From Rhodocyclaceae bacterium (lineage in GTDB: Bacteria > Pseudomonadota > Gammaproteobacteria > Burkholderiales > Rhodocyclaceae), in NCBI GenBank assembly GCA_016721505.1, contig JADKHX010000002.1, forward strand, positions 37,126-101,125: a DNA stretch of 64,000 nt, in the 5' to 3' direction. Of this stretch, positions 17,467 through 62,824 are shown piece after piece. The notes under the pieces were generated by a model. That model was given only the letters and a program-made list of their open reading frames with translations. It did not search any database and was not told the DNA's origin. The position numbers and the translations under genes are program-made. The stretch's first letter is position 1, and the number at the start of each line of letters is the position of its first letter.

Positions 17467-17487
17467 TTGCCTTGATCTAATCAAATG

Positions 17488-17514
17488 GTCAGTTGGTGCT
17501 GGCCACACGCCGTT
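17488..17514 (-). repeat. 27-nt motif copy, intergenic
   Basis: GTCAGTTGGTGCTGGCCACACGCCGTT, between DUF2909 and ctaE. Confidence 0.75.
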
Positions 17515-17566
17515 GAGCGTTGAAAACAGAAGGGCAGGCTAAATTTATCGCCTGCCCTGGTAAGCG

Positions 17567-18433: not shown

Positions 18434-18492
18434 GCTTAGCTCCTTAAAAATATTTTCAACAAATGCTTGTTAATTTTGTGACTGAACTGCGC

Positions 18493-18705: not shown

Positions 18706-18717
18706 GCATCTGCTTTC

Positions 18718-19302: not shown

Positions 19303-19311
19303 GCAATACGC

Positions 19312-19455
19312 TTATGCGCCGCCGCTGACCCACTGGCGGATGATCACTGTGACGAACACGGCACTCGCAAACAACGCGAGAAGAATCCCAACCCGGCGAT
19401 TATTCCTGCGCTGTGTGTCAAGGTCGTTAGTGTTCTCCACGGCATTTGCACTCAT
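19312..19455 (-). CDS. small single-TM protein between ctaD and ctaG (oxidase small assembly protein-like)
   Basis: Below the track's size cutoff. My translation is MSANAVENTNDLDTQRRNNRRVGILLALFASAVFVTVIIRQWVSGGA*. Its ATG overlaps the ctaD stop (TAATG). Confidence 0.55.
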   Translation of the reverse strand: MSANAVENTNDLDTQRRNNRRVGILLALFASAVFVTVIIRQWVSGGA

Positions 19456-21080: not shown

Positions 21081-21132
21081 ATTCAGATACTCCTAGTTGC
21101 GTAGTGCGTCAGGTTCATTGCTGTTCAACAAA

Positions 21133-22293: not shown

Positions 22294-22463
22294 TATTTCT
22301 CCCGGACTTGGAACCAAAACTTGTACTTTGTAAGGCTGCACTAGCGCGCAAGTACGTCACAAAAACTGAGTTTTGTGAAAAACTCGCTGCATGCCACTAT
22401 GTTCAACGCCGCGAAGGTTAACACGGCGCACCCCATCGCTGCAAAAATTTTGCGATGCACTTG

Positions 22464-44545: not shown

Positions 44546-45238
44546 ATGAGAAAACAACCTGCTGACATTCCGTTAATTCTGAGTCGTCTGCCCCTCTTTC
44601 AAGAACTTCACGCCGAACAAATATCGGCTATTGCCGTGGGCGTGCGCGAACGTGCTCTGGCGCGCGGCGAGATGTTGTTCCAAAAAGGTGATGCAGCGCG
44701 CGGCTTTTTTGTCGTGCTCAACGGTCAAATAAAACTGGCATTTCCTTCTGCGCAGGGCAACGAAAAGGTCGTCGAAATTCTTGGTCCACGCCAAAGTTTT
44801 GGTGAAGCGGTAATGTTCATGGATAGACCCTATCCGGTATTTGCCGAAGCTTTGCTCGATTCCAGTTTGCTATTCATTGATCGTGCAGTTGTTTTTGATT
44901 TGCTAGCGATAGACACCTCGTTTGCGCGAAAACTTTTGGCCGGACTGTCGCAACGGCTGCACGGCTTGGTACAGGATGTTGAATCGTATTCTTCGCGTTC
45001 GTCTGCACAAAGGGTGATTGGCCATTTGTTGCAACACTGTGCCGAAGATGCCGACAAGCAAGCCAACATCGAAGTCGTTTTACCGACCTCAAAACAAGTC
45101 ATCGCGTCGCGACTGAATCTCACGCCTGAGACGCTATCGCGCGTGTTCCATGACTTGAGCGAACGCGGCTTGATTCGTGTCAATGGCAAGAACATAACGA
45201 TTTTGGATCTGGAACTGCTGAGGCAATTCGACATTTAG
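44546..45238 (+). CDS. Crp/Fnr family regulator, Dnr/NnrR class
   Basis: 230 aa. cNMP-like barrel and HTH with the E--SR recognition motif (PETLSRVF). No N-terminal Cys cluster, so it is not FNR proper. Lies next to nirS. Confidence 0.85.
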   Translation: MRKQPADIPLILSRLPLFQELHAEQISAIAVGVRERALARGEMLFQKGDAARGFFVVLNGQIKLAFPSAQGNEKVVEILGPRQSFGEAVMFMDRPYPVFAEALLDSSLLFIDRAVVFDLLAIDTSFARKLLAGLSQRLHGLVQDVESYSSRSSAQRVIGHLLQHCAEDADKQANIEVVLPTSKQVIASRLNLTPETLSRVFHDLSERGLIRVNGKNITILDLELLRQFDI

Positions 45239-45536: not shown

Positions 45537-45550
45537 TTGATGCGAATCAA
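45537..45550. promoter_or_regulatory. FNR/Dnr box, perfect
   Basis: TTGAT-GCGA-ATCAA, about 75 nt upstream of the DUF2249 start. Confidence 0.7.
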
Positions 45551-45629: not shown

Positions 45630-45643
45630 TTGATTGCAATCAA
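45630..45643. promoter_or_regulatory. FNR/Dnr box, perfect (nirS promoter)
   Basis: TTGAT-TGCA-ATCAA, about 110 nt upstream of the nirS ATG. Confidence 0.75.
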
Positions 45644-45667: not shown

Positions 45668-47473
<1,806 letters not shown>

Positions 47474-47527
47474 AGGCAAATTGCTGCTCGGGGAAATCCC
47501 GGCTAGCAATATCAAAGGAGCATAGAC

Positions 47528-47848
47528 ATGATCAAGACAGCTGCGTTTTTCGGAATAATTTGTGGTTTGGCCTTAGTGCTTGCGACGCCAGCGCGAGCGA
47601 GTGAAGAGAGTTTCAAGAAAGCCGGTTGCGTTGCCTGTCACACGCCAGACAAAAAACTGGTTGGTCCGGCATTGAAAGATATTGCCGCCAAGTACAAAGG
47701 CCAGGGCGACGCGGTCGCCAAGCTGTCGGAAAAAGCGCGCAAGGGCGGCTCTGGCGTTTGGGGTCCAATTCCCATGCCGCCCAATGGGGCCGACAAGGTT
47801 AGCGACGCAGACTTGAAGTCCACCGTCGAATGGATTTTGAACCGGTAA
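47528..47848 (+). CDS. nirM: cytochrome c551/c552
   Basis: 106 aa. GCVACH...VGPALKDIAAKY...GVWGPIPMPPN closely resembles Pseudomonas c551. Confidence 0.9.
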   Translation: MIKTAAFFGIICGLALVLATPARASEESFKKAGCVACHTPDKKLVGPALKDIAAKYKGQGDAVAKLSEKARKGGSGVWGPIPMPPNGADKVSDADLKSTVEWILNR

Positions 47849-47881
47849 GGCGGTGCAGGAACTCGCGAACCAAACAGGACT

Positions 47882-47908
47882 CGCCCACCTTGGTGGGCGT
47901 TTCCCCTT
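47882..47908 (+). terminator. hairpin plus T-rich tail after nirM (partial terminator/attenuator)
   Basis: CGCCCACC-TT-GGTGGGCG followed by TTTCCCCTT. Confidence 0.55.
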
Positions 47909-47972
47909 ATCTTGTGGGCACTCCTCTGCGCAAAGCGTCACTCAATCGCGATCACTCGGGTTTGCGACACCT

Positions 47973-48302
47973 ATGAAAGCCCGGTTGTACCTCTTACTCA
48001 TTGCAATGTGCTGTGCCGGCAATTCAAGCGCGGAAACTTTTGTGCCGGTATCGCCCAGCGAAATGACGCGACTCGTCCGCCAAGACTGCGGTTCTTGCCA
48101 CGGCATGAAATTAACCGGCGGGCTTGGCTCGCCACTCACTGCCGATGCGCTTAAAGGCAAACCTGCCGAAGCGCTGACGGCGACCATACTCTATGGGCGA
48201 CCCGGAACGACCATGCCGGCATGGAAATCACTGCTCACCGTAGCGCAAGCACAGTGGATCACTGCGCGTCTGCTCGAGGGATTTCCCGAGGAGGTTCGTT
48301 GA
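47973..48302 (+). CDS. nirC: cytochrome c55X
   Basis: About 109 aa from ATG 47973. Signal peptide and CGSCHG heme site. Position as in nirSMC. Confidence 0.85.
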   Translation: MKARLYLLLIAMCCAGNSSAETFVPVSPSEMTRLVRQDCGSCHGMKLTGGLGSPLTADALKGKPAEALTATILYGRPGTTMPAWKSLLTVAQAQWITARLLEGFPEEVR

Positions 48303-49480
48303 TGCGAAGCTTGGCCTATCTCTTTCTCTGCTGTGTGCTGGTGCTAGTGCTCGGCGCTTGTACGACGCTATCGACACTGCGCGGAACGGGCGATTTGGGT
48401 GTGGTGATCGAACGTGCCGATGGCGCAGTAACGCTGGTTAATACCTCCGCCAAAGCGCCTTATGCACGGGTCGACGGTTTGGGCGACCTGTCGCACGCCT
48501 CGGTAGTTTTCTCGCGCGATGCGCGCTATGCCTTTGTCTTCGGTCGCGATGGTGGCTTGTCGAAAATTGATCTGCTGGAATCGCGGCTGGTGAAGCGGGT
48601 GATGCAATCAGGCAATGCCATCGGCGGTTCAATATCACAAGATGGCCGCATCGTCGTCGCGCAAAACTATGTGCCGGGCGGCATCAAAGCATTCGACGCC
48701 GAAACCCTGGAGCTATTGTCGGAAGTGCCCGCCGAATATGCACCGGGAAAATTCTCCAAAGTGGTCGGTCTGGCGGATACCTCCGGCAACCGGTTTGCTT
48801 ACGCCTTGTTCGATGCGGGTGAAATATGGGTCAGCGATTTCAGCGACCCGAAACATCCAACGACCAAGAAATTCCCGGCCGGAAAGAATCCCTACGATGG
48901 CCTGATTACGCCCGACGGTCGCTACTACCTGGCGGGGCTATTTGGCGAAGACGGAATTGCCAAGCTTGACCTGTGGCAGACGGAAAAAGGCAGCAGCAAG
49001 ATTCTGGAAAACTACGGACGTGGCGAGGAGAAGCTGCCAGTTTTCAAGATGCCGCATTTACGCGGCTGGTCGCTCGCTGCCGGGCGCGCTTGGTTGCCTG
49101 CAATCGGGCGACATGAAGTACTGGTCGCCGATGCGCGGACGTGGAACGAAGTCGCTCGTGTGCAAGTTAAAGGCCAGCCAGTGTTTGTGATGGCTAGCCC
49201 GGACGGGCGACAAGTCTGGGTCAACTTTGCCCATCCGGACAATGGCTGGGTACAGGTGATCGATACGCTGAGCGGACAAGTGATCAAAACGCTACAACCG
49301 GGCAAAGCGGTTTTGCATATGGAGTTCACGCCGCGCGGCGAAGCGGTATGGATCTCAGCACGTGACGACAACCGCGTGGTGATTTATGACACGCGCAGCT
49401 TCGAGCAAATCGGCGGTTTCGATGTCAAAGCACCTTCGGGGATTTTCTTCACCACGCGCGCTGCGCGGATAGGCTTTTAG
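48302..49480 (+). CDS. nirF: heme d1 biosynthesis protein NirF (lipoprotein)
   Basis: ATG 48302 overlaps the nirC stop. LGAC lipobox. cd1-like propeller without a heme c site. Confidence 0.88.
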   Translation: MRSLAYLFLCCVLVLVLGACTTLSTLRGTGDLGVVIERADGAVTLVNTSAKAPYARVDGLGDLSHASVVFSRDARYAFVFGRDGGLSKIDLLESRLVKRVMQSGNAIGGSISQDGRIVVAQNYVPGGIKAFDAETLELLSEVPAEYAPGKFSKVVGLADTSGNRFAYALFDAGEIWVSDFSDPKHPTTKKFPAGKNPYDGLITPDGRYYLAGLFGEDGIAKLDLWQTEKGSSKILENYGRGEEKLPVFKMPHLRGWSLAAGRAWLPAIGRHEVLVADARTWNEVARVQVKGQPVFVMASPDGRQVWVNFAHPDNGWVQVIDTLSGQVIKTLQPGKAVLHMEFTPRGEAVWISARDDNRVVIYDTRSFEQIGGFDVKAPSGIFFTTRAARIGF

Positions 49481-49491
49481 GGCGAACCGCA

Positions 49492-50469
49492 ATGGACTCA
49501 CCTTACAGCCCGTTGGAATTTTCATTGTTAAACGACTGGCAGCGTGATTTTCCGCTGGTGTCGAATCCGTTCGCGGAGATTGCGGCGTCAGTTGGTGCTG
49601 ACGACACGCTGTCAGATAAGGTTCTAAGTACGTTGAACCGCTTGGTGGCGCGCGGCGCAATCAGCCGCATCGGAGCCGTGTTTGCGCCGCGTCGGGTAGG
49701 CATCGGCGCACTCGCCGCGGTCGCTGCACCTGCTGAAAAAATCGAAGCGATTGCGGCACAAATTAACGCGCACGCCACGGTCAATCACAACTACCAGCGC
49801 GAACATCTTTACAACCTCTGGTTCGTCGTCACGGCGCCCGACAAAGCCGCCTTGGACGCGACCCTAACGCAGATAGAAATGGAAACCGGCTGCACAGTTA
49901 TTTCCATGCCATTGGCCGAAGAGTTTCATATTGATTTGGCATTCGACATGCAGTCGGGACATAGCCCGATTCAGCACCAGCGTTCCTGCGCGGCTATCAC
50001 TCGAGACCTGGATACCGACGAGCGTCGGCTGGCAGCGCAATTGCAAGATGGCTTGACGCTTTGCGCCACGCCCTACGCAGAACTTGGGCAGCGCGCCGGC
50101 ATGAGCGAAGCGCAAGTGCTCAATCATTTGCGACGCTGGCAAGACGAGGGATTGATCAAGCGTTTTGGCATTGTCGTGCGACATCACGAAATGGGTTATC
50201 GCTCAAATGCGATGGTGGTGTTTGATATTGCTGACGACAACGCATCCACCATTGGCACGGCCTTGGCTAGCGTGCCGGGCGTGACTTTGTGTTATCGGCG
50301 CGAGCGTTGCCTGCCGGCGTGGCCGCACAATATTTACTGCATGGTGCATGGTCGAAGTCGCGATGAAGTCTTCCCGATTGTCGAACGTTTGGCGGCCATC
50401 GCCGGTATTAAGCCGACGGTGTTGTTCTCCGTGCGACGTTTCAAACAATGTGGTGCAAGATATTTCTGA
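49492..50469 (+). CDS. nirD: fused NirD-NirL siroheme decarboxylase subunits
   Basis: 325 aa with two tandem AsnC/Lrp-like modules (LNDWQRDFPL... and ERRLAAQLQDGLTL...). Confidence 0.85.
   Translation: MDSPYSPLEFSLLNDWQRDFPLVSNPFAEIAASVGADDTLSDKVLSTLNRLVARGAISRIGAVFAPRRVGIGALAAVAAPAEKIEAIAAQINAHATVNHNYQREHLYNLWFVVTAPDKAALDATLTQIEMETGCTVISMPLAEEFHIDLAFDMQSGHSPIQHQRSCAAITRDLDTDERRLAAQLQDGLTLCATPYAELGQRAGMSEAQVLNHLRRWQDEGLIKRFGIVVRHHEMGYRSNAMVVFDIADDNASTIGTALASVPGVTLCYRRERCLPAWPHNIYCMVHGRSRDEVFPIVERLAAIAGIKPTVLFSVRRFKQCGARYF
49586..49613 (-). repeat. 27-nt motif copy inside nirDL
   Basis: CGTCAGTTGGTGCTGACGACACGCTGTC, read as SVGADDTLS. Confidence 0.7.
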
Positions 50470-50957
50470 TGAATGCCATGCGCGCCTCAACTGATGCTTC
50501 GATTCGCCCGTCACCAGATGAAATGGATCGCGCCATCATTAACAAAATGCAAGGCGATTTCCCTTTGCTTGACGAGCCGTATCGCGCCGTTGCCGACAGC
50601 TTGGGAATCAGCGAAAGCGAATTACTTGGACGCTTGCAAGGCATGCTTGATAAGCGAATATTGACCCGCTTCGGGCCGATGTTTCAAGTTGAACGCATGG
50701 GTGGCGCTTTTGTGCTCGCGGCGATGACAGTGCCGGAAGAACGATTTGATGAAGTCGCCACGCAAGTCAATTCATTGGCCGAAGTGGCGCACAACTACCG
50801 CCGCGAACATGCGATGAATATGTGGTTCGTGTTGGCCACAGAGACTCGCGCCGGGATTGCCGAGGTCATCGCGCGAATAGAAGCGATGACGGCATTGCCG
50901 GTGTTTGCTTTTCCGAAAGAGCGTGAGTATTTCGTCGAGATGAAACTCCATGCTTGA
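50469..50957 (+). CDS. nirG: siroheme decarboxylase subunit NirG
   Basis: ATG 50469 overlaps the nirDL stop. Has the MDRAIINKMQGDFPL module. Confidence 0.85.
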   Translation: MNAMRASTDASIRPSPDEMDRAIINKMQGDFPLLDEPYRAVADSLGISESELLGRLQGMLDKRILTRFGPMFQVERMGGAFVLAAMTVPEERFDEVATQVNSLAEVAHNYRREHAMNMWFVLATETRAGIAEVIARIEAMTALPVFAFPKEREYFVEMKLHA

Positions 50958-51552
50958 GATGGCTCATAACAGAGGCGAAACAGGGAATTCGCAAAGCACT
51001 GCTTTGCGCCTGTGTAGCGGGTCGGCTGTACTAAGCCGACACTGCACGTCAGCACCAACTGGCAAATTCGGGCTAGACGAACGCGACCTCGATCGCGAAA
51101 TCATTCTCGCCACGCAAGGCGGCTTGCCGCTGGTATCACGTCCCTATCATTTCATCGCCGAGCAACTTGGGGTCGATGCAGGGCAAGTGCAATCACGGCT
51201 TGCCGCCATGCTGGCCGATGGTCGCATTCGCCGCATCGGTGCAGTGCCGAATCACTACGCCATCGGCTACACGGCCAACGGCATGAGTGTCTGGGATGTT
51301 GAAGATGCCCTGATCGACGAATTAGGCGCGCAAGTCGGTGCGCTAAGTTTTGTGACGCATTGCTATCGACGTCCGCGCCGTTTGCCAGCGTGGCCTTACA
51401 ACTTGTTTGCGATGGTGCACGGCGCTACGCGGGATGAGGTGCAAGCCGATGTCACAAAAATTGCTGCCTTGTTAGGTGACGCTTGCCGTGGCCACGACGT
51501 TCTCTATAGCAGCCGGATACTGAAGAAAACCGGACTGCGTATCGGGGGTTAA
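50950..51552 (+). CDS. nirH: siroheme decarboxylase subunit NirH (5' end runs through a repeat element)
   Basis: The conserved NirH sequence begins about LDERDLDREIILATQGGLPLVSRPY (from ~51073). The only in-frame ATGs (50950, 50959) lie upstream of the 95-nt repeat copy C, which stays open in frame. Confidence 0.8.
   Translation: MLEMAHNRGETGNSQSTALRLCSGSAVLSRHCTSAPTGKFGLDERDLDREIILATQGGLPLVSRPYHFIAEQLGVDAGQVQSRLAAMLADGRIRRIGAVPNHYAIGYTANGMSVWDVEDALIDELGAQVGALSFVTHCYRRPRRLPAWPYNLFAMVHGATRDEVQADVTKIAALLGDACRGHDVLYSSRILKKTGLRIGG
50968..51062 (+). repeat. 95-nt long-form repeat element, copy C
   Basis: AACAGAGGCGAAACAGGGAATTCGCAAAGCACTGCTTTGCGCC...GTCAGCACCAACTGG. Contains the perfect palindrome CGCAAAGCA-C-TGCTTTGCG and the hairpin GTCGGC-(8 nt)-GCCGAC. 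Confidence 0.8.
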
Positions 51553-51649: not shown

Positions 51650-51744
51650 CAACCCTAAGACTCATCGCGATGATCATGGCTTGCCTAAAGTCGCAACGTC
51701 GCTCGGCTTGACCATTTCTTGTCGGCCAACAGGAGTCACTATTG

Positions 51745-53220
51745 ATGAATTCCTTCGCAGATTTTCCAGCCAACGATGCCAGCATTTTTTTGGCGCAAGT
51801 TGATTTTTTCGCCTGCGCTGACCCCCAAACTTTCATTCAAATTACCCGCAACGCACAGACACGAAAATTCCAAGCTGACCAAGTGGTTTGTAGTGTGGGT
51901 GATCAGCCGAGAACGCTTTTCGTTGTGCTCTCCGGGTTGATCAAGCGTGCCTTGCTTGCCGAGTGCGGACATGAGAGTGTGGCCGATCTAATCACGCCTG
52001 GGCGATATTTTGGCGACACCGAACTTTTTTCACAACGCCCGTTCGGGATTAGCGCCGTTGCTGTCGAACCAACAGAAGTGCTGTGCATTGACGGGGAAAG
52101 TATTCGCAAAGCAGTCGAACAGGATTCACGTTGGGCGAGCCACCTTATTTCATTGATGGCGCGCGGCAGACTTAGTAGCGACGCTGAACGCGCCATCGCG
52201 CCAACACGGTCGAGCTGCGAACGCGTGCTCGATTATCTGCTCGACTTAGCGGAAAAGAGCCACGCGGAAGGATGGGGAACAACCGTCAGATTGATGACCA
52301 CCAAACAGTTGATCGCTGCGCGAATCGGATTGACACCAGAGACCTTTTCTCGCGCCCTGCGGCAGCTTTCTGACGAGGGGAAAATCCTCGTTGATGGACG
52401 TCACGTGACATTGCGTGAAATGCTTATCGAAAGCTGGCCATCATCGAAGGCCGCCACGCAATCGGTCCGCCCTTCTCTCGATGTAGGGCGTATCGAAATT
52501 TACGAAAGTCCAACGCTTAACACCATCAACATCGCTGGCAGGCAGCGCATGTTGTCGCAGCGGATGAGCAAGTTCTGGCTAATGATTCAGCACGGCATCA
52601 CAGTGCGGCATGCACAAAATAAGTTGCAGCAAGCCATGGCTGAATTTGAGCTGCAAATGATTCACCTGCATAACTTAACGGCCAACGACAAAATCGCGCA
52701 GTCGCTCAAAGTCTTGGACGACATGTGGCGTGTGTTCCGTATGCAGTTGCTGCAGGCAGATGCCGGCGACACCGATAAAGTTTTATCCCAGGGTGAACAG
52801 GTGATGCGGGCCGCCAATGAGTTAACCGCGAAATATGTCGCTTTCGTCAACGACGCAAGCGCGCAATTGGTCAACCTGGCCGGGCGTCAAAGAATGCTGT
52901 CGCAACACATTGCCAAGCTTTATGTGCTGCAGCATTCAGGTGCGGTCAGCCGTGAGGCCGACTCAAAATTGCATGCAGCACGACAGGAATTTTCCAAGGC
53001 CCTGCTTGAGTTGCTACGCTCAGCAAACAACCATCCTGTCCTAAAGCGACAGTTGCGCCTTGTTTCCAGTCAATGGTCGGCCATGAGCAAAGGCTTGGAC
53101 GACCCGTCCCAAACCAATGCGGCGCGGAGTGCAAGCCAAATTTCTTTGGCAAGTGAGCGTGTAGTAAAGCAGCTAGACAACGTGGTTGTTTTCTATTCGA
53201 CGTTGAAAAAGGTCGCTTGA
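51745..53220 (+). CDS. Crp/Fnr-type regulator fused to two C-terminal PilJ/NarX-P-box-like four-helix sensor modules
   Basis: cNMP-like barrel (FVVLSGLIK...YFGDTELF) and an HTH with E--SR (PETFSRALRQL). These are followed by two ~110-aa repeats, each opening with N(I/L)AGRQRMLSQ(R/H). I see no hydrophobic segment anywhere. AGGAG RBS 9 nt before the ATG. Confidence 0.75.
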   Translation: MNSFADFPANDASIFLAQVDFFACADPQTFIQITRNAQTRKFQADQVVCSVGDQPRTLFVVLSGLIKRALLAECGHESVADLITPGRYFGDTELFSQRPFGISAVAVEPTEVLCIDGESIRKAVEQDSRWASHLISLMARGRLSSDAERAIAPTRSSCERVLDYLLDLAEKSHAEGWGTTVRLMTTKQLIAARIGLTPETFSRALRQLSDEGKILVDGRHVTLREMLIESWPSSKAATQSVRPSLDVGRIEIYESPTLNTINIAGRQRMLSQRMSKFWLMIQHGITVRHAQNKLQQAMAEFELQMIHLHNLTANDKIAQSLKVLDDMWRVFRMQLLQADAGDTDKVLSQGEQVMRAANELTAKYVAFVNDASAQLVNLAGRQRMLSQHIAKLYVLQHSGAVSREADSKLHAARQEFSKALLELLRSANNHPVLKRQLRLVSSQWSAMSKGLDDPSQTNAARSASQISLASERVVKQLDNVVVFYSTLKKVA

Positions 53221-53321: not shown

Positions 53322-53335
53322 TTGATATCAGTCAA
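53322..53335. promoter_or_regulatory. FNR/Dnr-like box upstream of nirJ
   Basis: TTGAT-ATCA-GTCAA. It overlaps the first ATG offered by the ORF track. Confidence 0.6.
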
Positions 53336-53370
53336 TGCGCGCCCCTAACAGTTTGGGGTCCAATGACCCC

Positions 53371-54528
53371 ATGTTCCGAATATCTCAATACATGCAGGAA
53401 ATTTTGGCGCCAACGCCGCTCGGGCCGGTGCGAAAACCACCCGCGCCGGTCGTCATCTGGAATTTAATCCGGCGTTGCAATCTGACTTGCAAACATTGCT
53501 ATTCCATTTCTGCCGACAAAGATTTTGCAGGTGAATTGTCGACGCAAGAAATCTTCTCGGTGATGGATGATCTCAAAGCTTTTCGCGTACCGGCGCTGAT
53601 ATTGTCTGGCGGCGAACCCTTATTGCGGCCTGACATTTACGACATCGCGCGACGGAGCAAGGCGATGGGTTTTTATACCGCCTTGTCCTCGAATGGCACG
53701 CTCATTGATGCAGCGGTCTGCGCCAAAATCGGCGAGATCGGCTTCGATTATGTTGGCATCAGCCTCGATGGTCTGGGTGCAACCCACGACAAGTTTCGCC
53801 GCATGGTGGGCGCCTTTGATAAATCGCTCGCCGCGATTCGGCTGTGCCACGCAGCAGGGATGAAGGTCGGTGTGCGTTACACGATGACGCAAGACAATGC
53901 GCACGACCTTCCCGGTTTGCTAAAACTGATTGAAGACGAAGGCATAGACCGCTTTTATTTCTCACATCTGAATTACGCCGGTCGCGGCAACGTCAACCGC
54001 AAGACCGACGCGCAACATCAAAAAACGCGGCAGGCGATGGACCTTTTGTTCGACACTTGTCTGGACTATCAACAACGCGGTGTGTTCAAGGAATTCACCA
54101 CCGGCAACAACGATGCCGACGGGGTTTATCTGCTGCACTGGGTAGCGCGACGCTTCCCCGAACGGCTCGAACACATCCGGCAAAAATTGCTGCAGTGGGG
54201 CGGCAATTCCAGCGGCGTTAATGTTGCCAATATCGATAACTTGGGCAACGTGCATCCCGACACCATGTGGTGGCATCACAACTTGGGCAATGTACGCAAT
54301 CGACCATTCAGCGAAATCTGGATGGACACTTCCGACCCGCTAATGGCTGGCTTGAAAGCAAAACCGCGCCAAGTCGGCGGGCGTTGTGGTGAGTGCGCGC
54401 ACTTCGCTATTTGCGGCGGCAACACCCGCGTTCGCGCGCAACAAACCAGCGGCAACGCGTGGGCAGAAGACCCGGGGTGTTATTTGACTGATGCGGAAAT
54501 CGGACTTGAAACGTGCGCCACGGTTTAG
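53371..54528 (+). CDS. nirJ: radical SAM heme d1 biosynthesis protein
   Basis: CNLTCKHCY (CxxxCxxC). Start taken at MFRISQYM (ATG 53371), matching the conserved NirJ N-terminus. Confidence 0.9.
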   Translation: MFRISQYMQEILAPTPLGPVRKPPAPVVIWNLIRRCNLTCKHCYSISADKDFAGELSTQEIFSVMDDLKAFRVPALILSGGEPLLRPDIYDIARRSKAMGFYTALSSNGTLIDAAVCAKIGEIGFDYVGISLDGLGATHDKFRRMVGAFDKSLAAIRLCHAAGMKVGVRYTMTQDNAHDLPGLLKLIEDEGIDRFYFSHLNYAGRGNVNRKTDAQHQKTRQAMDLLFDTCLDYQQRGVFKEFTTGNNDADGVYLLHWVARRFPERLEHIRQKLLQWGGNSSGVNVANIDNLGNVHPDTMWWHHNLGNVRNRPFSEIWMDTSDPLMAGLKAKPRQVGGRCGECAHFAICGGNTRVRAQQTSGNAWAEDPGCYLTDAEIGLETCATV

Positions 54529-56135
54529 CGAAAGATTTTGCGAAAAACTGCTTCGCGTGGATCTTGTGTTTGCTCAGCGTCACCGCCTCGCCCGGCCACG
54601 CCGCTGACGCCGCAGCGCTGTATCAACAACACTGTGCTGCTTGCCATGGCAGCGACAGAATCGGCGCGATGGGACCAGCACTGTTGCCGGAAAGTTTGGA
54701 GCGCCTGAAAAAAGCTGAAGCCCTGAAAGTCATCCGCGATGGCCGGGCAGCGACACAAATGCTGGGCTTTGCTGATCGATTGTCGGCGGAAGAAATCACG
54801 CAAGTCGGTGAGTATATTTTGGCCGGGGCCAAACGGGGAATCCGCCAAGCATTCTTGGCAGCGCCTGTAACCAGAGCACCAACTCACACAGAAGCAAATA
54901 TTCGCGCCTCACGTATTGTTCATTTCAGCAACCTGCCTGCCACACCGTCGCCGATTTTCGCCAGGCGCGACATGATTAATTTGTTTTTGGTGGTCGAGGC
55001 GGGTGACCATCACGTCAGCATTTTGGATGGCGACAAGTTGGAAGTCATTCATCGCTTCGCCAGTCGCTATGCATTGCATGGCGGACCAAAATTCACGGCC
55101 GACGGACGCTATGTTTTTTTCGCTTCGCGCGATGGCTGGGTGAGCAAATTTGATATCTGGAATTTGAAGACGGTCGCCGAAATCCGCGTCGCATTGAACA
55201 CGCGCAATGTTGCGGTGTCGGAGGATGGCAAATGGGTCATCGCCGCGAATTACTTGCCGGGCAATCTGGTTCTGCTCGATGGTGATTTGAATCTAGTCAA
55301 AGTGATCGCCGCCACAACGCTGGATGGCAGCAAGTCGTCGCGCGTTTCAGCCGTGTATGACGCCGCACCGCGCAAGAGCTTTGTCGCGGCACTCAAAGAC
55401 ATCCCGGAGATTTGGGAAATTTCTTACGACCCGACGATCGAACCGATCTACAACGGCATGGTGCATGACTACAAGATGGGCGAAGGCATCGCGATTCCCG
55501 GATTTCACAACCCGCGCCGCACCACGCTCGAAAGCCCCCTGGACGACTTTTTCTTTGATGCCTCCTACGCGCATGTGATGGGGGCAAGCCGGGCGGGTCG
55601 CGGCCAGGTCGTGCATCTGGATGTCAGAAAGAAAATTGCTGATTTGGATATTCCCGGTATGCCACATCTGGGTTCCGGCATCACCTGGACGCGCGACGGT
55701 CGTACCGTGATGGCCAGCCCGAATCTGAAAGATGGTGTGGTCAGCGTGGTGACTATGGACGACTGGAAAGTGATCAAGCAGATCCCCACCTTGGGGCCAG
55801 GTTTCTTTATGCGTAGTCACAGCAACACACCCTATGCGTGGGTAGATTCGATGATGAGCCCAGCCAAGAACACGCTGCAGATCATCGACAAACAGACGCT
55901 GGAAAAGGTGGCCGAGGTCAGCACCGAGCCCGGCAAAACTTTGGCGCACGTTGAGTTCGACCGCTATGGCAAATATGTGCTGGCCAGCCTGTGGGAACGC
56001 AAACAGGATGGCGGCGCAATCATCGTTTACGACGCCAAAACGTTCAAAGAAATCAAACGTATTCCCATGGATAAGCCAGTGGGCAAATACAACCTCTACA
56101 ACAAGATTACCCGCTCGGAAGGCACGTCTCACTGA
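54513..56135 (+). CDS. nirN: NirN (cytochrome c plus cd1-like propeller; dihydro-heme d1 dehydrogenase)
   Basis: 540 aa. Signal peptide and CAACHG, then a cd1-type propeller. GTG start overlapping nirJ. Confidence 0.88.
   Translation: MRHGLAKDFAKNCFAWILCLLSVTASPGHAADAAALYQQHCAACHGSDRIGAMGPALLPESLERLKKAEALKVIRDGRAATQMLGFADRLSAEEITQVGEYILAGAKRGIRQAFLAAPVTRAPTHTEANIRASRIVHFSNLPATPSPIFARRDMINLFLVVEAGDHHVSILDGDKLEVIHRFASRYALHGGPKFTADGRYVFFASRDGWVSKFDIWNLKTVAEIRVALNTRNVAVSEDGKWVIAANYLPGNLVLLDGDLNLVKVIAATTLDGSKSSRVSAVYDAAPRKSFVAALKDIPEIWEISYDPTIEPIYNGMVHDYKMGEGIAIPGFHNPRRTTLESPLDDFFFDASYAHVMGASRAGRGQVVHLDVRKKIADLDIPGMPHLGSGITWTRDGRTVMASPNLKDGVVSVVTMDDWKVIKQIPTLGPGFFMRSHSNTPYAWVDSMMSPAKNTLQIIDKQTLEKVAEVSTEPGKTLAHVEFDRYGKYVLASLWERKQDGGAIIVYDAKTFKEIKRIPMDKPVGKYNLYNKITRSEGTSH
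54872..54885 (+). repeat. degenerate core motif copy in the nirN interdomain linker
   Basis: CAGAGCACCAACTC, read as TRAPTH. Confidence 0.35.
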
Positions 56136-57319
56136 TGTCATTACTGACCATAAAAGATCCGGTGCCAACCAAACCAGCACAGACGTTTGCGCTGTTCGCG
56201 CTGGGCTTTCGGCCTTTCTATTTGCTCGCCGCGTCATTCACCGCCATGGCGCTTCCGGTGTGGATGCTGGTGTTATCGGGCGTGGTGTCCTTGCCCTTGC
56301 CGGGAATTTTTTGGCACGCGCATGAAATGATTTTTGGCTTTGCGGCTGCCGTCATCGTCGGCTTTTTATTCACTGCCGGCCGCAACTGGACAGGGCTACC
56401 CACCCCAACCGGCGGGCCGCTCGCGGCGCTCGCGGGCCTGTGGTTGCTCGGGCGCATCGGCATGGCATGGAGTGGTGGCGTTGTCGCCGCGCTGATTGAT
56501 TGGGCGTTCCTGCCCGCTGCTGCAATCGCTCTGGCCTTAGTGTTGATCAAGGCCGATAGTCGGCGCAACTATTTCATCATCGTATTACTGAGCGTATTGG
56601 CACTGGCCAACGCGGCCTTTCACCTTGCGCGTCTGGACGCCATCACGCTCGACCCCTTGCGCCCATTGTGGTTCGCGCTGGGCTTGATCACGGTGTTGGA
56701 AACTGTCATCGGTGGTCGGGTGATTCCGATGTTCACCGCGTCGGCATTGCGCGGTGTGAAGCAGTGGCAGCATCGACAGTTTGAACTCAGCGCCATCGCC
56801 TTGACAGCCATCGCGCTGCTGCTGTGGGTGTTGGATTTGAGCGCGATTGGCGCGCCACTGGCGGCGCTTGCCGCTGTCATGCAACTTGTCCGCTGCATCG
56901 GCTGGAACCCATGGGCGGCGCGGCGCTCACCTTTGCTGTGGATTCTGCACCTCGCTCATCTGTGGATTCCCACCGGCCTCGCGCTATTGGCTCTGGTGCA
57001 ATGGGGCGTATTGCCGCGTTCGGCGGCGGTGCATGCGCTGGCCATTGGCGCCACCGGCGGCTTGATTATCGGCATGATCACCCGCACCGCGCTGGGTCAC
57101 ACAGGTCGCATGCTGGTGGCCGGCAAGATTGAGATCACCGCCTATGTTCTGGTACAACTGGCCGCCGTTTCGCGCGTGCTGACGATTATTGCCTTCCCCA
57201 GTTTGATCCTCGGCGGCACGCACCTCGCCGCGACCTTGTGGGCCATCGCTTTCGGTCTGTATTTCATTCGCTATCTGCCGTGGTTAGCCAGCTCGCGTCC
57301 TGACGGTCGTCCGGGATAA
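56135..57319 (+). CDS. nnrS: NnrS family membrane protein
   Basis: 394 aa, about 12 TM, His-rich N-terminal helices (FWHAHEMIFGF). ATG overlaps the nirN stop. Confidence 0.85.
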   Translation: MSLLTIKDPVPTKPAQTFALFALGFRPFYLLAASFTAMALPVWMLVLSGVVSLPLPGIFWHAHEMIFGFAAAVIVGFLFTAGRNWTGLPTPTGGPLAALAGLWLLGRIGMAWSGGVVAALIDWAFLPAAAIALALVLIKADSRRNYFIIVLLSVLALANAAFHLARLDAITLDPLRPLWFALGLITVLETVIGGRVIPMFTASALRGVKQWQHRQFELSAIALTAIALLLWVLDLSAIGAPLAALAAVMQLVRCIGWNPWAARRSPLLWILHLAHLWIPTGLALLALVQWGVLPRSAAVHALAIGATGGLIIGMITRTALGHTGRMLVAGKIEITAYVLVQLAAVSRVLTIIAFPSLILGGTHLAATLWAIAFGLYFIRYLPWLASSRPDGRPG

Positions 57320-59188: not shown

Positions 59189-59202
59189 TTGACCGCAGTC
59201 AA
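59189..59202. promoter_or_regulatory. Dnr/NNR-type box upstream of the second oxidase operon
   Basis: TTGAC-CGCA-GTCAA, a symmetric sequence about 100 nt upstream of ATG 59304. Confidence 0.6.
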
Positions 59203-59303
59203 GGCATTTGGTGAACGCCGCGCCTAGCATCAGGTCGTGTGGAGCTTGGATCAGCCAAGCGCCAAATCCTGTCACTGAGCAAGCCACCTGAGGAGAACAT
59301 CCC

Positions 59304-59456
59304 ATGAATGAAAACGAAACCGATGCCCCCGTGCCCTTCATGCAACAGCTTTTGGACAACCCGTTTCTGTTGTTGTTCCTGGGCGTGATGATTCCGATGG
59401 TGGTCTACAGCCTGTGGGGCGTGATCGACATTTTGACCATTCCCGTCGCCAAATAG
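59304..59456 (+). CDS. small single-TM protein, first gene of the second oxidase operon
   Basis: Below the track's cutoff. GAGGAG RBS 7 nt upstream. Translation is MNENETDAPVPFMQQLLDNPFLLLFLGVMIPMVVYSLWGVIDILTIPVAK*. Confidence 0.6.
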   Translation: MNENETDAPVPFMQQLLDNPFLLLFLGVMIPMVVYSLWGVIDILTIPVAK

Positions 59457-59480
59457 TTACGCCTTCAGAGAGGAAAAAAT

Positions 59481-60020
59481 ATGAGCGCAATTCTCCCGCC
59501 CGCAGAACGACTTTGGTGGAAACATCCCCTCGACCGCGTCGAAGGCACCTGGATCGTGATCGCCTTTATCTGGTGCATGATCATGTTCGCCATGATGGTC
59601 GGCTGGCACATTTACGGTAAGCAAAATCTCTCCACCGAAACCTACAAAACCACGCCGGAACTGTTCAGCAAGAAGGCACAGGATGTGGTCGACAAGTACA
59701 CGGTGCGCAAAGAGACCGATAAGGAAATTCCGGTGGTACATCCGCCTCCAGGCAGTGATGTCTATCTCGTTGCACGGCTATGGGATTGGTGGCCGATCAT
59801 CGAACTGGAAAAAGACAAAACCTATAAGCTCCATTTGACCTCGATGGACTTCAACCACGGCTTTTCACTGCAGCCGGTGAACATCAACATTCAAGTCGTG
59901 CCGGGTTACGAGCATGTGGTCAAAGTGACACCGAATCAGTCGGGTACTTTTTCCATCGTCTGCAACGAATTCTGCGGCATCGGCCACGCCAATATGGCCG
60001 GCCGAATTTACGTTAAGTGA
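59481..60020 (+). CDS. heme-copper oxidase subunit II, one TM plus cupredoxin with a complete CuA site
   Basis: 179 aa. H-x34-CNEFCGIGHANM fits H...CxExCx3Hx2M exactly. Confidence 0.88.
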   Translation: MSAILPPAERLWWKHPLDRVEGTWIVIAFIWCMIMFAMMVGWHIYGKQNLSTETYKTTPELFSKKAQDVVDKYTVRKETDKEIPVVHPPPGSDVYLVARLWDWWPIIELEKDKTYKLHLTSMDFNHGFSLQPVNINIQVVPGYEHVVKVTPNQSGTFSIVCNEFCGIGHANMAGRIYVK

Positions 60021-60107
60021 GGGAGTTGATCGTGAAACTACGCGCCAACAATGATCCGATTTATTTCGGCCAAAACCCACAAGCCCTTGTAGCCCACCCA
60101 TCCCCTG

Positions 60108-60127
60108 CCCTTCCCTCGAGGGAAGGG
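60108..60127. repeat. perfect 20-nt palindrome between subunits II and I
   Basis: CCCTTCCCTCGAGGGAAGGG, checked base by base. Confidence 0.9.
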
Positions 60128-60186
60128 AGTTCTTCGGCTCGCTCCGCTCGAACCTTACGGGGTGGTTTGCAAATGGAGATTTCACT

Positions 60187-61884
60187 ATGAGCACAACCTA
60201 TCGAACCTGTCCGCGTTCCGGACTGCAATTTGAGGCACAGGCCGAGCGCCTGATGTTGGTCAACGCTGTTGCCGCTGTCGTATTTTTGTTAGTGGGTGGC
60301 ATCCTTGCTGTCGGTGTGGTGCTCACCCGCTGGCCGGCTGTGCATTGGCTGTCAGCCGATGCGTTTTACATGGTGCTGACCGCACACGGCATCGACATGC
60401 TGATCTTCTGGATCATCTTCTTCGAGATGGCGGTGCTGTATTTCTGTTCATCAACGCTACTGCGTTGTCGAATCGCCACGCCGCGAATGGCATGGCTCGG
60501 TTTCGCGCTGATGCTGATCGGCGCGGTCACCAACAACGTCGCCGTGTTCCGTGGCAGCTCCAGCGTGATGATGACTTCCTACGTGCCGATGATGGCCGAG
60601 CCGGCGTTTTATCTGGGTCTGATTTTGTTCGCCGTCGGCGCATTGATCGGATGTTTCGTTTTCCTTGGCACGCTGGTCGTTGCCAAGCGCGAAAAGACTT
60701 ATCAAGGCTCGATTCCGCTGGTGACTTTTGGCGCGGTGACGGCGACCATCATCGCGGTGTTCACCATCACTTCCGGCGCGATCATTTTGATCCCGACTTT
60801 CTTGATGTCGGTTGGTGTCATCAACCAAGTTGACCCCTTGGTGTACCGCACTATTTGGTGGGCCTTCGGTCACTCGTCGCAGCAGATCAACGTCGCTGCG
60901 CACATCTCGATCTGGTACGCCATCGCCGCAATTTGCTTCGGTGCCAAGCCAATGTCCGAGCGGGTCAGTCGCGGTGCCTTCCTGCTCTACATTTTGTTTT
61001 TGCAACTCGCCAGCGCGCACCATTTGCTGGCCGATCCGGGCATGAGCACGGAATGGAAAGTGGTCAACACCAGTTACTTCATGTACTTCGCCGTGTTGGC
61101 CTCAATGATTCACGGCCTGACCATTCCCGGCGCTATCGAAGTCGCGCAACGTGAAAAGGGTTACACCAAAGGTCTGTTCGAGTGGCTGCGCAAAGCACCA
61201 TGGGGCAATCCGGTTTTCTCCGGCATGTTCATTTCGCTAATCGGTTTCGGCTTCCTCGGCGGGATCTCCGGCGTGATGATGGGAACGGAACAACTGAACA
61301 TGTTGATCCACAACACCATCTACGTTCCCGGCCACTTCCACGCCACGGTTGTCGTCGGCACCACGCTGTCGTTCATGGCGCTGACCTATTTCCTGATTCC
61401 GGTCTTGTTCAAGCGCGAAATGATCAACCCCGGCCTGGCCAAATTGCAGCCGTATATGTTCGGTCTGTCGATGTACTTCTTCTGTCTGGTGATGATGGGC
61501 GCCGGCACGCTGGGCGTATCGCGGCGGCATTGGGATATGGCCATGGGCGGCTCGCCACTGGCCTATGAATTCCCCGGCGCGGCTTACTTGATGATGGGCT
61601 TGGTCGGCATCGCTGGCATCGCCGCGATTCTTGGCGGCGCGATCTACATCTACATCACCGTCGGCTCACTGTTGTGGGGCAAGAAACTGGATGCCGGTGT
61701 ACAAACTACACAGACGATTCCGTTGCCAAAAACTCCGATGCCAAACGTCGTTGTTCAAAGTCACGGCTCAGCAGGCTTCGCCGCACCGGGCACCTTTGCC
61801 TTGGCCATGGTGTTCCTGATTTCCTTCGTCCTGTACTACTTCATCAATTGGAAGTATTTGTCGCAGGTCTGGGGTTTGAGTTAA
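60187..61884 (+). CDS. heme-copper oxidase subunit I, B-family-like, lacking the cross-link Tyr (candidate NO reductase, sNOR/eNOR-like)
   Basis: 565 aa. Heme His in LTAHGIDM. CuB His in WWAFGHSSQQ, with Gln where Tyr is expected at +4. HH in ASAHHLL and HFH in VPGHFHAT. GGAGA RBS. Confidence 0.85.
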   Translation: MSTTYRTCPRSGLQFEAQAERLMLVNAVAAVVFLLVGGILAVGVVLTRWPAVHWLSADAFYMVLTAHGIDMLIFWIIFFEMAVLYFCSSTLLRCRIATPRMAWLGFALMLIGAVTNNVAVFRGSSSVMMTSYVPMMAEPAFYLGLILFAVGALIGCFVFLGTLVVAKREKTYQGSIPLVTFGAVTATIIAVFTITSGAIILIPTFLMSVGVINQVDPLVYRTIWWAFGHSSQQINVAAHISIWYAIAAICFGAKPMSERVSRGAFLLYILFLQLASAHHLLADPGMSTEWKVVNTSYFMYFAVLASMIHGLTIPGAIEVAQREKGYTKGLFEWLRKAPWGNPVFSGMFISLIGFGFLGGISGVMMGTEQLNMLIHNTIYVPGHFHATVVVGTTLSFMALTYFLIPVLFKREMINPGLAKLQPYMFGLSMYFFCLVMMGAGTLGVSRRHWDMAMGGSPLAYEFPGAAYLMMGLVGIAGIAAILGGAIYIYITVGSLLWGKKLDAGVQTTQTIPLPKTPMPNVVVQSHGSAGFAAPGTFALAMVFLISFVLYYFINWKYLSQVWGLS

Positions 61885-61894
61885 TCGCGACAGC

Positions 61895-62824
61895 ATGCCG
61901 GGAAATGCGTTCAGGAGTCATGCCGACATGAATCAGGCTCAAATCGCCAGTCGCGGGTTCACAAAAACCGCACGCGACGTGCTGAGCCTGTTCAAGCTGC
62001 GCATCGGCTTCATCATCATGCTCACCGCTTTGGCAGGCTATGCGATCACGCCGGGCGGCAATATCGGTGCGCTTCAACTCACGGTGCTTGCGCTCGCCGT
62101 TTTGGTTTCGTCAGCCAGCGCCGGTGCCTTCAATCAATACATCGAATGTGAGGAAGACAAGCTGATGGCGCGCACCCGCACGCGGGCGTTTGTCACCGGT
62201 GCTTTGCCGCACACACCGGCGTGGCTGGTGCTGATTGTGGCGATGCTGGTCGGCTCTGTCGCGGCGGCGTGGTATGTGAGCAATGCCGCAGCGGCGTTCT
62301 ACACTTTCCTCGGCGCGTTCTTCTACGCCATCGTTTATACGGTTTGGCTAAAGCGTCGCAGTTGGCTGAACATCGTTGTCGGCGGCCTCGCGGGTAGCTT
62401 CGCCGTGCTCGCCGGTGCGGCGGCGGTCAATCCGGTTTTAGGTGCAGAGCCAGTATTGCTGGCGCTGGTTTTGTTCCTGTGGACGCCACCACATTTTTGG
62501 AGCCTGGCAATCGCCAATCGTGCCGAATACGCCGCTGCCAATGTTCCGATGTTGCCTGTTGTGGTTGGCGATGTGCGCGCCGCGCAAATCGTTTTTTACA
62601 GCACCGTTGCCTTGGTTTTGGTTTCGCTGATTGCGCCGATCATTGCCAACGCACCAATCCACTTTGCCGGTGCGCTGATCGGCGGCGGATACTTCCTGCG
62701 CAAGTCCTGGCAGCTGGCACAAAACCCGAATCGCAAAACCGCAATGGCCTCGTTCTTCGCCTCATTGCTGCAACTTTCGCTGCTGCTGGTTGCAGCCATG
62801 GTGGACGTCTGGGTATTGCGATGA
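61895..62824 (+). CDS. ctaB: protoheme IX farnesyltransferase, second copy
   Basis: 309 aa UbiA-type protein, paralogous to 13526..14422 (shared [12 protein letters not shown]). An alternative start is ATG 61928. Confidence 0.88.
   Translation: MPGNAFRSHADMNQAQIASRGFTKTARDVLSLFKLRIGFIIMLTALAGYAITPGGNIGALQLTVLALAVLVSSASAGAFNQYIECEEDKLMARTRTRAFVTGALPHTPAWLVLIVAMLVGSVAAAWYVSNAAAAFYTFLGAFFYAIVYTVWLKRRSWLNIVVGGLAGSFAVLAGAAAVNPVLGAEPVLLALVLFLWTPPHFWSLAIANRAEYAAANVPMLPVVVGDVRAAQIVFYSTVALVLVSLIAPIIANAPIHFAGALIGGGYFLRKSWQLAQNPNRKTAMASFFASLLQLSLLLVAAMVDVWVLR

Follow-up and report, generated by a model that had tools for sequence, protein, structure and literature searches.

In the window analysed here (the whole 64,000-nucleotide stretch at positions 37,126 to 101,125 of contig JADKHX010000002.1, assembly GCA_016721505.1, from a Rhodocyclaceae bacterium), the genes for cytochrome cd1 nitrite reductase and heme d1 synthesis are interrupted between nirH and nirJ by a gene encoding a Crp/Fnr regulator with two PilJ domains appended to its C-terminus. 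This locus raises a key question: does the regulator read nitrate or a related compound directly inside the cell and convey the signal to FNR-type promoters, as an earlier note made from the sequence alone had proposed, or is the appended module something other than a sensor? We lean, at somewhat better than an even chance, towards a one-component cytoplasmic sensor of nitrate (possibly nitrite) that acts at FNR-type boxes. The argument starts from what could be observed directly, namely the architecture, the motifs, the predicted fold, the conservation of the family and the gene context.

Architecture of the regulator

The protein consists of three parts: a DNR-like Crp/Fnr unit, a 31-residue disordered linker and two PilJ four-helix bundles. 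The coordinates of these and of the other features are collected in Table 1. Pfam PilJ (PF13675) was matched in two stretches of the C-terminal half with an E-value of 2.9e-19, the hits covering residues ~258-491, and no match to NIT (PF08376) or 4HB_MCP was obtained on the regulator at E <= 1. The two stretches constitute an internal repeat, with an alignment score of 109 vs 29 +/- 5.7 for shuffled sequence, and open with the peptides INIAGRQRMLSQRMSK (residues 261-276) and VNLAGRQRMLSQHIAK (residues 376-391). The Pfam hits, the repeat score and the structural model therefore agree with the layout described in the earlier note, a Crp/Fnr protein continuing into two PilJ-type repeats within one open reading frame (ORF), the length of the product being 491 amino acids (aa).

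The repeat-opening peptides carry the motif on which the proposed function depends. Nitrate-binding PilJ domains are set apart from others, such as that of PilJ itself, by the N-box of McpN, [IVL]-[ND]-x-A-G-x-Q-R-M-L-[ST]-Q (PMC6381276). Both repeats of the regulator match this N-box exactly, and a search of the window in all frames revealed no occurrence beyond these two. The AGRQRMLSQ signature, which the earlier note had regarded as the hallmark of such sensor domains, corresponds to this published motif. The structure of the nitrate-bound PilJ domain of McpN was determined by Martin-Mora et al., who found R61 to be essential (PMC6381276). The nitrate-contacting core common to NarX, NarQ and McpN is G-x-x-R, and in these three proteins nitrate lies between two G-x-x-R helices that are equivalent helices of a homodimer; the site of NasR, in contrast, is asymmetric and intramolecular, with one arginine coming from each of two bundles (PMC8199190). 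Among 26 diverse members of the family (alignment A1), G265, R268 and R383 are invariant, and G380 is retained in at least 90%.

A profile of the family matched the nitrate-bound ligand-binding domain of McpN (6gcv) with an E-value of 9.5e-16, and the significant PilJ assignment of the C-terminal half, expected in the earlier note, is thus supported by two kinds of search. When the single sequence of the C-terminal half was compared with the PDB, the McpN match was marginal (E 0.028) and limited to the N-box region; NasR was not among the best 60 of the 146 PDB sequence-profile matches (E <= 10). The fold search with the full-length model returned Crp-family matches only, and therefore the C-terminal half was modelled separately (AlphaFold, residues 249-491, 61-sequence alignment). 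The resulting model (pLDDT 95.3, pTM 0.92) contains eight helices arranged as two bundles, and its top PDB fold match in Foldseek was NasR (4akk), with 256 aligned columns, a TMq of 0.63-0.64 and a probability of 1.00; the NIT domain of NasR had already been named in the earlier note as the cytoplasmic analogue. Single bundles matched McpN 6gcv with a TMt of 0.73-0.75 at 24% identity, NarQ (6xyn) was also among the matches (TMt 0.41), and the tandem PilJ chemoreceptor domain 8wdf gave no global match to the model (TMq 0.27). By its sequence, each bundle is thus assigned to the McpN-type N-box PilJ domains and not to the NIT family, and the bundle pair is predicted to be arranged like the NIT domain of NasR. 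According to the model, the two bundles most likely form one intramolecular NasR-like site rather than acting as a pair of independent sensors.

The N-terminal half is of the FNR/DNR kind. In the AlphaFold model, the barrel is strand-rich with pLDDT > 90, and the full-length model aligned with CRP-family structures in Foldseek at a TMt of 0.8-0.87. Among solved structures, that of P. aeruginosa DNR (3dkw) is nearest to the Crp half, at an E-value of 2e-41 when the family profile is searched and of 1.6e-16 for the sequence alone, and the N-terminal 226 residues are 30% identical to the window's own 230-aa Dnr-like protein. The E-x-x-S-R helix of the FNR/DNR class reads TTGAT half-sites; the E--SR helix reported in the earlier note is indeed present as E199-x-x-S202-R203, and all three residues are invariant in alignment A1. 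In the same alignment, we found no invariant or nearly invariant cysteine (Cys24, 49, 74, 114 and 158 of the window protein are unconserved), which excludes an FNR-type [4Fe-4S] cluster. The CRP-type Arg-Ser/Thr pair that contacts cAMP was likewise sought in the barrel across alignment A1 and is absent: the loop at the position of what we take to be the phosphate-contacting pair R82/S83 of E. coli CRP reads ...FSQRPFGISAVAV..., with the family consensus FGxxELFxxxxYxxxAxAV. The NCBIfam CRP model scored 49.6 bits on the regulator vs a cutoff of 266, and no NCBIfam equivalog attains its cutoff. The invariant arginine R193 aligns with His187 of P. aeruginosa DNR, which is presumably a haem ligand there, and the window's Dnr-like protein also has arginine at this position. 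On sequence grounds, we assign the regulator to the Crp/Fnr superfamily and to the FNR/DNR recognition class; it is neither FNR proper nor CRP proper.

How are the two halves connected? The full-length AlphaFold model combines a pLDDT of 87.5 with a pTM of only 0.57, and residues 227-252 fall below a pLDDT of 50; the protein is therefore best described as two rigid bodies on a flexible tether. Within the family, the linker shows 0-22% identity to that of the window protein and varies from 24 to 55 residues. With a tether that lacks conservation and differs in length among members, it is unlikely that a signal passes as a piston or rotation movement through a continuous helix.

Another important question is whether the PilJ bundles lie inside the cell. 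The mechanical first start of the ORF is TTG 51742, three nucleotides (nt) upstream of ATG 51745, and we take the ATG to be the start because the homologues likewise open with MNSF... The Kyte-Doolittle 19-residue mean of the regulator reaches its maximum, 1.40, in the beta-barrel, with lower peaks of 0.70 between residues 227 and 491 and of 1.0 at the N-terminus; the usual threshold for a transmembrane (TM) segment is 1.6. Hydropathy analysis of the whole protein showed neither a TM helix nor a signal peptide, which bears out the lack of any hydrophobic segment remarked on in the earlier note. Therefore, the regulator is assigned by its sequence to the soluble, cytoplasmic proteins. A signal of horizontal transfer was also sought, and the GC content and third-position GC content of the gene proved ordinary vs those of neighbouring genes; base composition is even across the Crp/PilJ junction.

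Table 1 Positions in the window of the regulator gene, its parts and the neighbouring genes and sites
Feature	Position	Strand	Remarks
Crp/Fnr regulator gene with two C-terminal PilJ domains	51745..53220, stop codon included	+	491 aa
Shine-Dalgarno sequence AGGAG	51731..51735	+	9 nt ahead of the ATG; read from the sequence
cNMP-binding-like beta-barrel	51862..52125 (residues 40-127)	+	Pfam cNMP_binding PF00027, E 5e-17
Long C-helix	52126..52206 (residues 128-154)	+	AlphaFold model; usual Crp/Fnr dimerisation helix
HTH_Crp_2 winged helix, PF13545	52219..52419 (residues 159-225)	+	Pfam, E 6e-13
Recognition-helix residues E199, S202, R203	52339-52353	+	E-x-x-S-R motif
Disordered linker	52423..52515 (residues 227-257)	+	AlphaFold; family comparison
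PilJ four-helix bundle A	52516..52848 (residues 258-368)	+	Pfam, model, motif
N-box of bundle A, INIAGRQRMLSQ	52525-52560 (residues 261-272)	+	G265 and R268 form G-x-x-R
PilJ four-helix bundle B	52849..53217 (residues 369-491)	+	Pfam, McpN profile match, motif
N-box of bundle B, VNLAGRQRMLSQ	52870-52905 (residues 376-387)	+	G380 and R383 form G-x-x-R
Dnr-like Crp/Fnr regulator, separate gene	44546..45238	+	230 aa; shares 30% identity with the fusion's N-terminal half
nirS, nirC, nirF, nirDL (fused), nirG, nirH	45674..51552	+	NCBIfam/Pfam; nirS and nirC by tblastn
nirJ, nirN-like gene, nnrS	53335..57319	+	nirJ TIGR04051, 630 bits; nnrS PF05940, E 2e-107; nirN-like product a cytochrome cd1 homologue
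FNR-type box in the 3' end of dnr	45170		
Two FNR-type boxes upstream of nirS	45537-45550 and 45630-45643	+	
FNR/DNR-type box TTGACCTAGATCAA	51636-51649	+	Centre ~102 nt upstream of the regulator ATG
Possible -10 hexamer GATCAT of the regulator gene	51672-51677	+	Class II spacing from the box; placement inferred from sequence
FNR-type box TTGATATCAGTCAA upstream of nirJ	53322..53335	+	
FNR-type box ahead of the oxidase-like operon	59189		

Family distribution and gene context

A word-indexed search revealed the same set of three Pfam families in 25 additional clusters (462-516 aa), as well as a 99%-identical protein in another metagenome. When 1.84 billion representatives were searched exhaustively with HMMER, end-to-end matches to the profile (335-682 bits) came from ~52 clusters at 50% identity, and below these the scores drop to proteins that match one half only. 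The same uninterrupted architecture across these clusters disposes of the concern, raised in the earlier note, that a hidden frameshift might join two separate genes. Among 185,579 species genomes, at least ten loci (L011-L020) encode the full-length architecture, all of them in metagenome-assembled genomes (MAGs); nine carry the labels Rhodocyclaceae, Rhodocyclales, Propionivibrio, Azonexus, Sulfuritalea or Sterolibacterium, and one is labelled Pseudomonadota only. Among the matches listed, genomic members occur only in betaproteobacterial MAGs (Rhodocyclaceae, Azonexaceae, Sterolibacteriaceae). Conservation is unevenly distributed along the protein: identity to the window protein in the helix-turn-helix (HTH) domain is 80-86% in the closest clade and 43-54% in the rest of the family, and outside the closest clade it amounts to 23-40% in the PilJ bundles and 15-34% in the barrel, the least conserved domain apart from the linker.

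Tandem N-box PilJ modules were also found C-terminal to ANTAR or REC-ANTAR in proteins such as P0046 and P0060, and a cytoplasmic, C-terminal double-PilJ sensor therefore has parallels. The nearest relatives of the C-terminal half are stand-alone double-PilJ proteins of 265-290 aa with signal peptides. When 70 loci encoding such proteins were searched by tblastn for nir, nar and dnr genes, only three gave matches; in five cultured genomes, Pfam annotation of the neighbouring genes revealed no common theme, and no Crp/Fnr gene adjoins the stand-alone genes except within one nir cluster (L077). Two of the 70 stand-alone loci place a tandem N-box PilJ gene in a nirS/heme d1 cluster, namely L077:9887-10738 (283 aa, Sulfuricella MAG) and L082:9805-10605 (266 aa, Chromatiales MAG). 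Both products have N-terminal signal-like hydrophobic segments and are presumably periplasmic, and the pairing of a double N-box PilJ protein with nir clusters thus recurs in an extracytoplasmic form. In L082 the immediate neighbours of the gene are nirG and nirH, and in L077 a cytochrome c gene separates it from nirG.

We also considered two proteins of ~485 aa from the search of representatives in which the Crp match is C-terminal (P0130 and P0140) as a possible reversed architecture. This reading was rejected: both contain cNMP_binding and HTH_Crp_2 twice, that is, two complete Crp/Fnr units head to tail, and two others (P0164 and P0212), judging by their length and the pattern of their matches, are presumably of the same kind.

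In the window, NCBIfam and Pfam annotation confirmed the position of the gene between nirH and nirJ and the existence of a separate Dnr-type regulator at 44546, both as described in the earlier note. The genes upstream of the regulator encode cytochrome cd1 nitrite reductase and heme d1 synthesis proteins, nirG and nirH specifying siroheme decarboxylase subunits. The order nirC-F-DL-G-H-[gene]-nirJ-nirN-nnrS is the same in two further loci, where the regulator is 61% (L007) and 59% (L011) identical, and in L011 dnr and nirS are also present upstream. In L001 and L020, the regulator gene directly follows nirS. Elsewhere it lies beside narK-narGHJI (protein P0015, L008) or beside genes for a hemerythrin and a PilJ-HAMP-PAS-GGDEF-EAL protein (L009). 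The link of the family to N-oxide respiration is therefore frequent and not universal.

A comparison of the window with L011 gave the following identities: NirS 95%, NirC 89%, NirF 86%, NirH 86%, NirN 84%, NnrS 82%, NirJ 78%, Dnr 76%, NirG 74%, NirDL 73% and the Crp-PilJ2 regulator 59%, which makes the last by far the fastest-evolving gene of the nir cluster in this pair. In L077, the nirH-nirJ junction, which is the regulator's place in the window, is occupied by a 180-aa ORF (L077:11244-11786) that was not matched by a hemerythrin query; accessory genes may repeatedly have been inserted at this junction.

The sequence TTGAYN4RTCAA occurs six times in the window vs 0.32 expected, one site more than the five boxes counted in the earlier note, and the box that it had placed at 51636, ahead of the regulator gene, is among them. 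The same or a similar box lies at -113 in L007 and at -107 in L011. The box upstream of nirJ is identical in L007 and has one mismatch in L011; it provides nirJ-nirN-nnrS with a separate promoter signal downstream of the inserted gene. No convincing intrinsic terminators were detected around the regulator gene, and transcripts may read through from nirH via the regulator gene into nirJ. The two boxes upstream of nirS are likely shared targets with Dnr. A pair of boxes again precedes nirS in L001 and L020, with a spacing of 93 nt in the window and L011 (3789-3895) and of 61 nt in L001 (8032-8106) and L020 (8031-8105); all four of these loci encode the fusion regulator, and two boxes could accommodate two different Crp/Fnr proteins.

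The nirJ box overlaps the mechanically called nirJ start at 53335. An in-frame ATG at 53371 (MFRISQYMQE), which is kept in L007, L011 and L082, lies 42.5 nt from the centre of the box; judging from the sequence, nirJ translation probably begins at 53371 or 53392, and the transcript may have little or no leader.

Two groups of oxidase-like genes were also seen in the window. At 59189-62824, an FNR-type box is followed by three genes, whose products are a small protein of 179 aa that resembles COX2/cupredoxin, a very divergent subunit I of the heme-copper oxidases (565 aa; 76.6 bits with the CtaD model vs a cutoff of 670) and a dedicated heme o synthase. In the annotated parts of the window we saw no canonical norCB, and this oxidase could be a member of the NOR-type heme-copper oxidases that serves the adjacent nir cluster. 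At 14575-15924, a 449-aa ORF that matches COX1 weakly (E 3e-12) and gave no NCBIfam hit represents another divergent member of the heme-copper oxidase superfamily; it adjoins a heme o synthase gene (13526-14422) and an aa3-type oxidase operon (16480-22341).

A proposed nitrate-responsive switch and its alternatives

From these observations we infer a ligand, DNA targets, a sign of regulation and a mode of coupling. The Crp half would dimerise through its C-helix and read TTGAY-N4-RTCAA boxes via the E-x-x-S-R helix. In a single chain the two bundles would be packed side by side, like those of NasR's NIT domain, and would each contribute one N-box helix (G265/R268 and G380/R383) to a single pseudo-symmetric oxyanion site; one intramolecular site is the simplest reading because the N-boxes are two and in tandem and the predicted packing is NasR-like. 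The ligand of this site would be nitrate taken up into the cytoplasm, possibly also nitrite, and occupancy of the site would change the docking of the sensor module on the Crp core, or its release from it. Such autoinhibition or relief of autoinhibition, which has been proposed for NasR, is favoured here, and ligand-dependent pairing of sensors between subunits would be a weaker alternative. DNA binding or activation would thereby be switched at the boxes of nirS, the regulator's own gene, nirJ-nirN-nnrS and, possibly, the downstream oxidase-like operon. With an FNR-type box of its own, the gene may depend for its expression on the low-oxygen/nitric oxide (NO) regulators FNR or Dnr, or on autoregulation; if activity additionally depends on nitrate, the regulator would act as an AND gate alongside Dnr.

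Several points weigh against this proposal. FNR-type boxes are common to FNR and Dnr, and no box is attributable to this regulator specifically; nor are there nir or nar genes within 10 kb of the regulator gene in L003, L004 and L012-L019. All genomic members of the family come from uncultured MAGs, and ligand, targets and regulation are predicted from their sequences. The motif does not by itself decide the ligand: McpN is specific for nitrate, NarX and NarQ also respond to nitrite, and the NIT domain of PA4520, in recombinant form, bound neither (PMC6381276). Moreover, the N-box is not strictly kept in more distant clades, where C replaces A at position 4 (box A) and N replaces Q at position 7 (box B). 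In Foldseek, the NasR match reached an E-value of only 0.15, a value common for helical bundles, and the predicted proximity of R268 and R383 follows from this global NasR match. Finally, a disordered, unconserved and length-variable linker is a poor conduit for a signal and offers no rigid signalling helix, which leaves the coupling of sensor to output speculative.

The nature of the ligand is the point on which the nearest alternative differs. With the same architecture and mode of action, the protein might instead report nitrite, on which the neighbouring nitrite reductase acts, or some other N-oxide or small oxyanion, a reading that we regard as unlikely. The window copy and its closest relatives do lie in a nirS/heme d1 cluster, whose substrate is nitrite, and the N-box variation of the distant clades could shift specificity. 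A related P-box in NarX and NarQ goes with responses to nitrate, nitrite and sulfite (PMC6381276), and NarR, a Crp/Fnr paralogue of Paracoccus, is described as sensitive to nitrite/nitrate (PMC3541799). However, both repeats fit exactly the N-box of McpN, which binds nitrate without relevant affinity for nitrite (PMC6381276). A physiological argument points in the same direction: denitrifiers with NarGHI export nitrite and reduce it in the periplasm, and a cytoplasmic nitrite signal would thus be indirect. One could also suppose that the input is sensed in the DNR-like barrel as NO, haem or redox state and that the tandem PilJ module is an appendage for oligomerisation, partner binding or stabilisation. 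The similarity of the N-terminal half to DNR among solved structures, the intact barrel and C-helix of the model, a flexible unconserved linker that argues against tight allosteric coupling, and the many members outside N-oxide gene clusters are all in keeping with such a view. We nevertheless see only a small chance for it, since both N-boxes keep their G-x-x-R residues invariant or almost invariant in a family that is otherwise only 26-38% identical, a pattern hard to explain without ligand binding. The barrel, by contrast, has diverged most of all domains apart from the linker (15-34% across clades), and the position of the presumed haem ligand His187 of DNR is held by the invariant R193, with arginine in the window's Dnr-like protein as well.

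Two further explanations concern the integrity and the location of the protein, and we consider both effectively refuted. Stand-alone double-PilJ proteins exist, they are closest to the C-terminal half, and their genes occur inside the nir clusters of L077 and L082, all of which could suggest that the long ORF is an artefact of assembly or sequencing or a recent pseudogene-like fusion of a Crp/Fnr gene with a double-PilJ gene. Yet ~52 clusters from independent assemblies carry an ORF of ~500 aa with varied linkers and without a stop or frameshift, another metagenome contains a 99%-identical protein, base composition is uniform over the junction, and the stand-alone proteins have signal peptides, which the fusion does not. 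A conventional membrane or periplasmic receptor with its PilJ domains outside the cytoplasm would agree with the typically periplasmic location of N-box PilJ domains, as in McpN (PMC6381276), and with the signal peptides of the free relatives. The hydropathy values (1.40 in the barrel, 0.70 in the C-terminal half) nevertheless stay below the usual threshold of 1.6, there is no N-terminal signal sequence, and a regulator with its DNA-binding part at the N-terminus could not be exported.

If the nitrate-sensing proposal is correct, the regulator may represent a new class within the Crp/Fnr superfamily, in which the effector is sensed not by the barrel but by a tethered, C-terminal, NasR-like tandem N-box PilJ module, and nitrate is linked directly to FNR-type promoters of nirS-type genes in Rhodocyclaceae-type bacteria. 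We advance this broader claim tentatively, at somewhat less than an even chance. No paper on a Crp/Fnr-PilJ architecture was found in the literature that was searched; the McpN study only remarks briefly that 'transcriptional regulators' are among the proteins with N-box PilJ domains, and its supplements contain neither Crp nor cNMP (PMC6381276). As far as we could find, the parts are known, and their combination, the site inside the heme d1 gene set and a sensor C-terminal to a Crp/Fnr HTH are uncharacterised. In the Pseudomonas model, nitrate is sensed outside the cell by NarX/NarL and relayed through Dnr; the direct route would replace or supplement this NarXL-to-Dnr cascade. Should the DNR-like barrel have kept the ability to sense NO or haem, two N-oxide signals might be combined in a single polypeptide.

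The family joins a motif-defined, predicted nitrate-binding module to an FNR-type DNA-binding domain in one soluble protein, and it is an example of Crp/Fnr regulators gaining a second sensor at the C-terminus. The names of several family MAGs suggest an origin in wastewater or groundwater, and control of nirS in such habitats bears on the accumulation of nitrite and N2O. A soluble nitrate-responsive transcription factor would also be a possible compact part for biosensors. Since every genomic member comes from a MAG, genetic work will need a heterologous host.

Comparison with known systems

The regulator can be set beside six known or partly known systems. With the NO-responsive activators of nirS and nor (DNR, NNR, NnrR), it shares the E-x-x-S-R helix, the TTGAT-N4-ATCAA box class and a location in a nirS cluster; these proteins, however, have ~230 aa without a C-terminal extension and sense their signal, NO via haem, in the barrel, whereas here a linker and sensor module of 265 residues are appended. 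NarR of Paracoccus is an FNR paralogue described as sensitive to nitrite/nitrate and as controlling nitrate respiration (PMC3541799). Compared by description, it resembles our protein as a nitrate/nitrite-responsive Crp/Fnr regulator, and one family member (P0015, L008) is encoded beside narK-narGHJI. In Paracoccus, narR presumably adjoins narK as well. To our knowledge, NarR has the usual two domains of a Crp/Fnr protein and lacks any recognisable nitrate-binding module.

On the sensory side, the P-box of NarX and NarQ, A-I-N-x-A-G-S-L-R-M-Q-S-Y-R-L (PMC8199190), and their G-x-x-R contacts are related to the motif of the regulator. These proteins are transmembrane two-component kinases with a periplasmic sensor and with HAMP, GAF-like, DHp and CA domains; Pfam, NCBIfam and hydropathy analysis of the regulator revealed no TM helices, HAMP or DHp/CA. 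McpN (PA2788), the nitrate chemoreceptor of P. aeruginosa (6gcv), has the same Pfam family, N-box and single-bundle fold. It differs in having one PilJ domain per chain, located in the periplasm between TM helices and binding one nitrate at the homodimer interface, and its output is chemotaxis signalling, whereas here two tandem domains in a cytoplasmic chain are connected to transcription.

Closer in layout are the uncharacterised ANTAR-PilJ2 and REC-ANTAR-PilJ2 proteins (P0046 and P0060), which are likewise cytoplasmic and carry the tandem N-box PilJ module C-terminal to a nucleic-acid-binding output. This output is the RNA-binding ANTAR domain, and in P0046 only a few residues lie between it and the first N-box helix, in contrast to the long disordered tether of the regulator. 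The known system that our protein is most like in its presumed working is NasR, a nitrate/nitrite sensor of Klebsiella oxytoca (NIT-ANTAR, 4akk), which is also a cytoplasmic, soluble, one-component protein with two four-helix bundles per chain and the best PDB fold match of the C-terminal half. The differences between them are that the output of NasR is an ANTAR RNA-binding antiterminator and here a Crp/Fnr DNA-binding domain (HTH_Crp_2), that the sensor is N-terminal in NasR and C-terminal here, that the Pfam class here is PilJ and not NIT, and that NasR serves nitrate assimilation while the regulator gene lies in a respiratory nir cluster.

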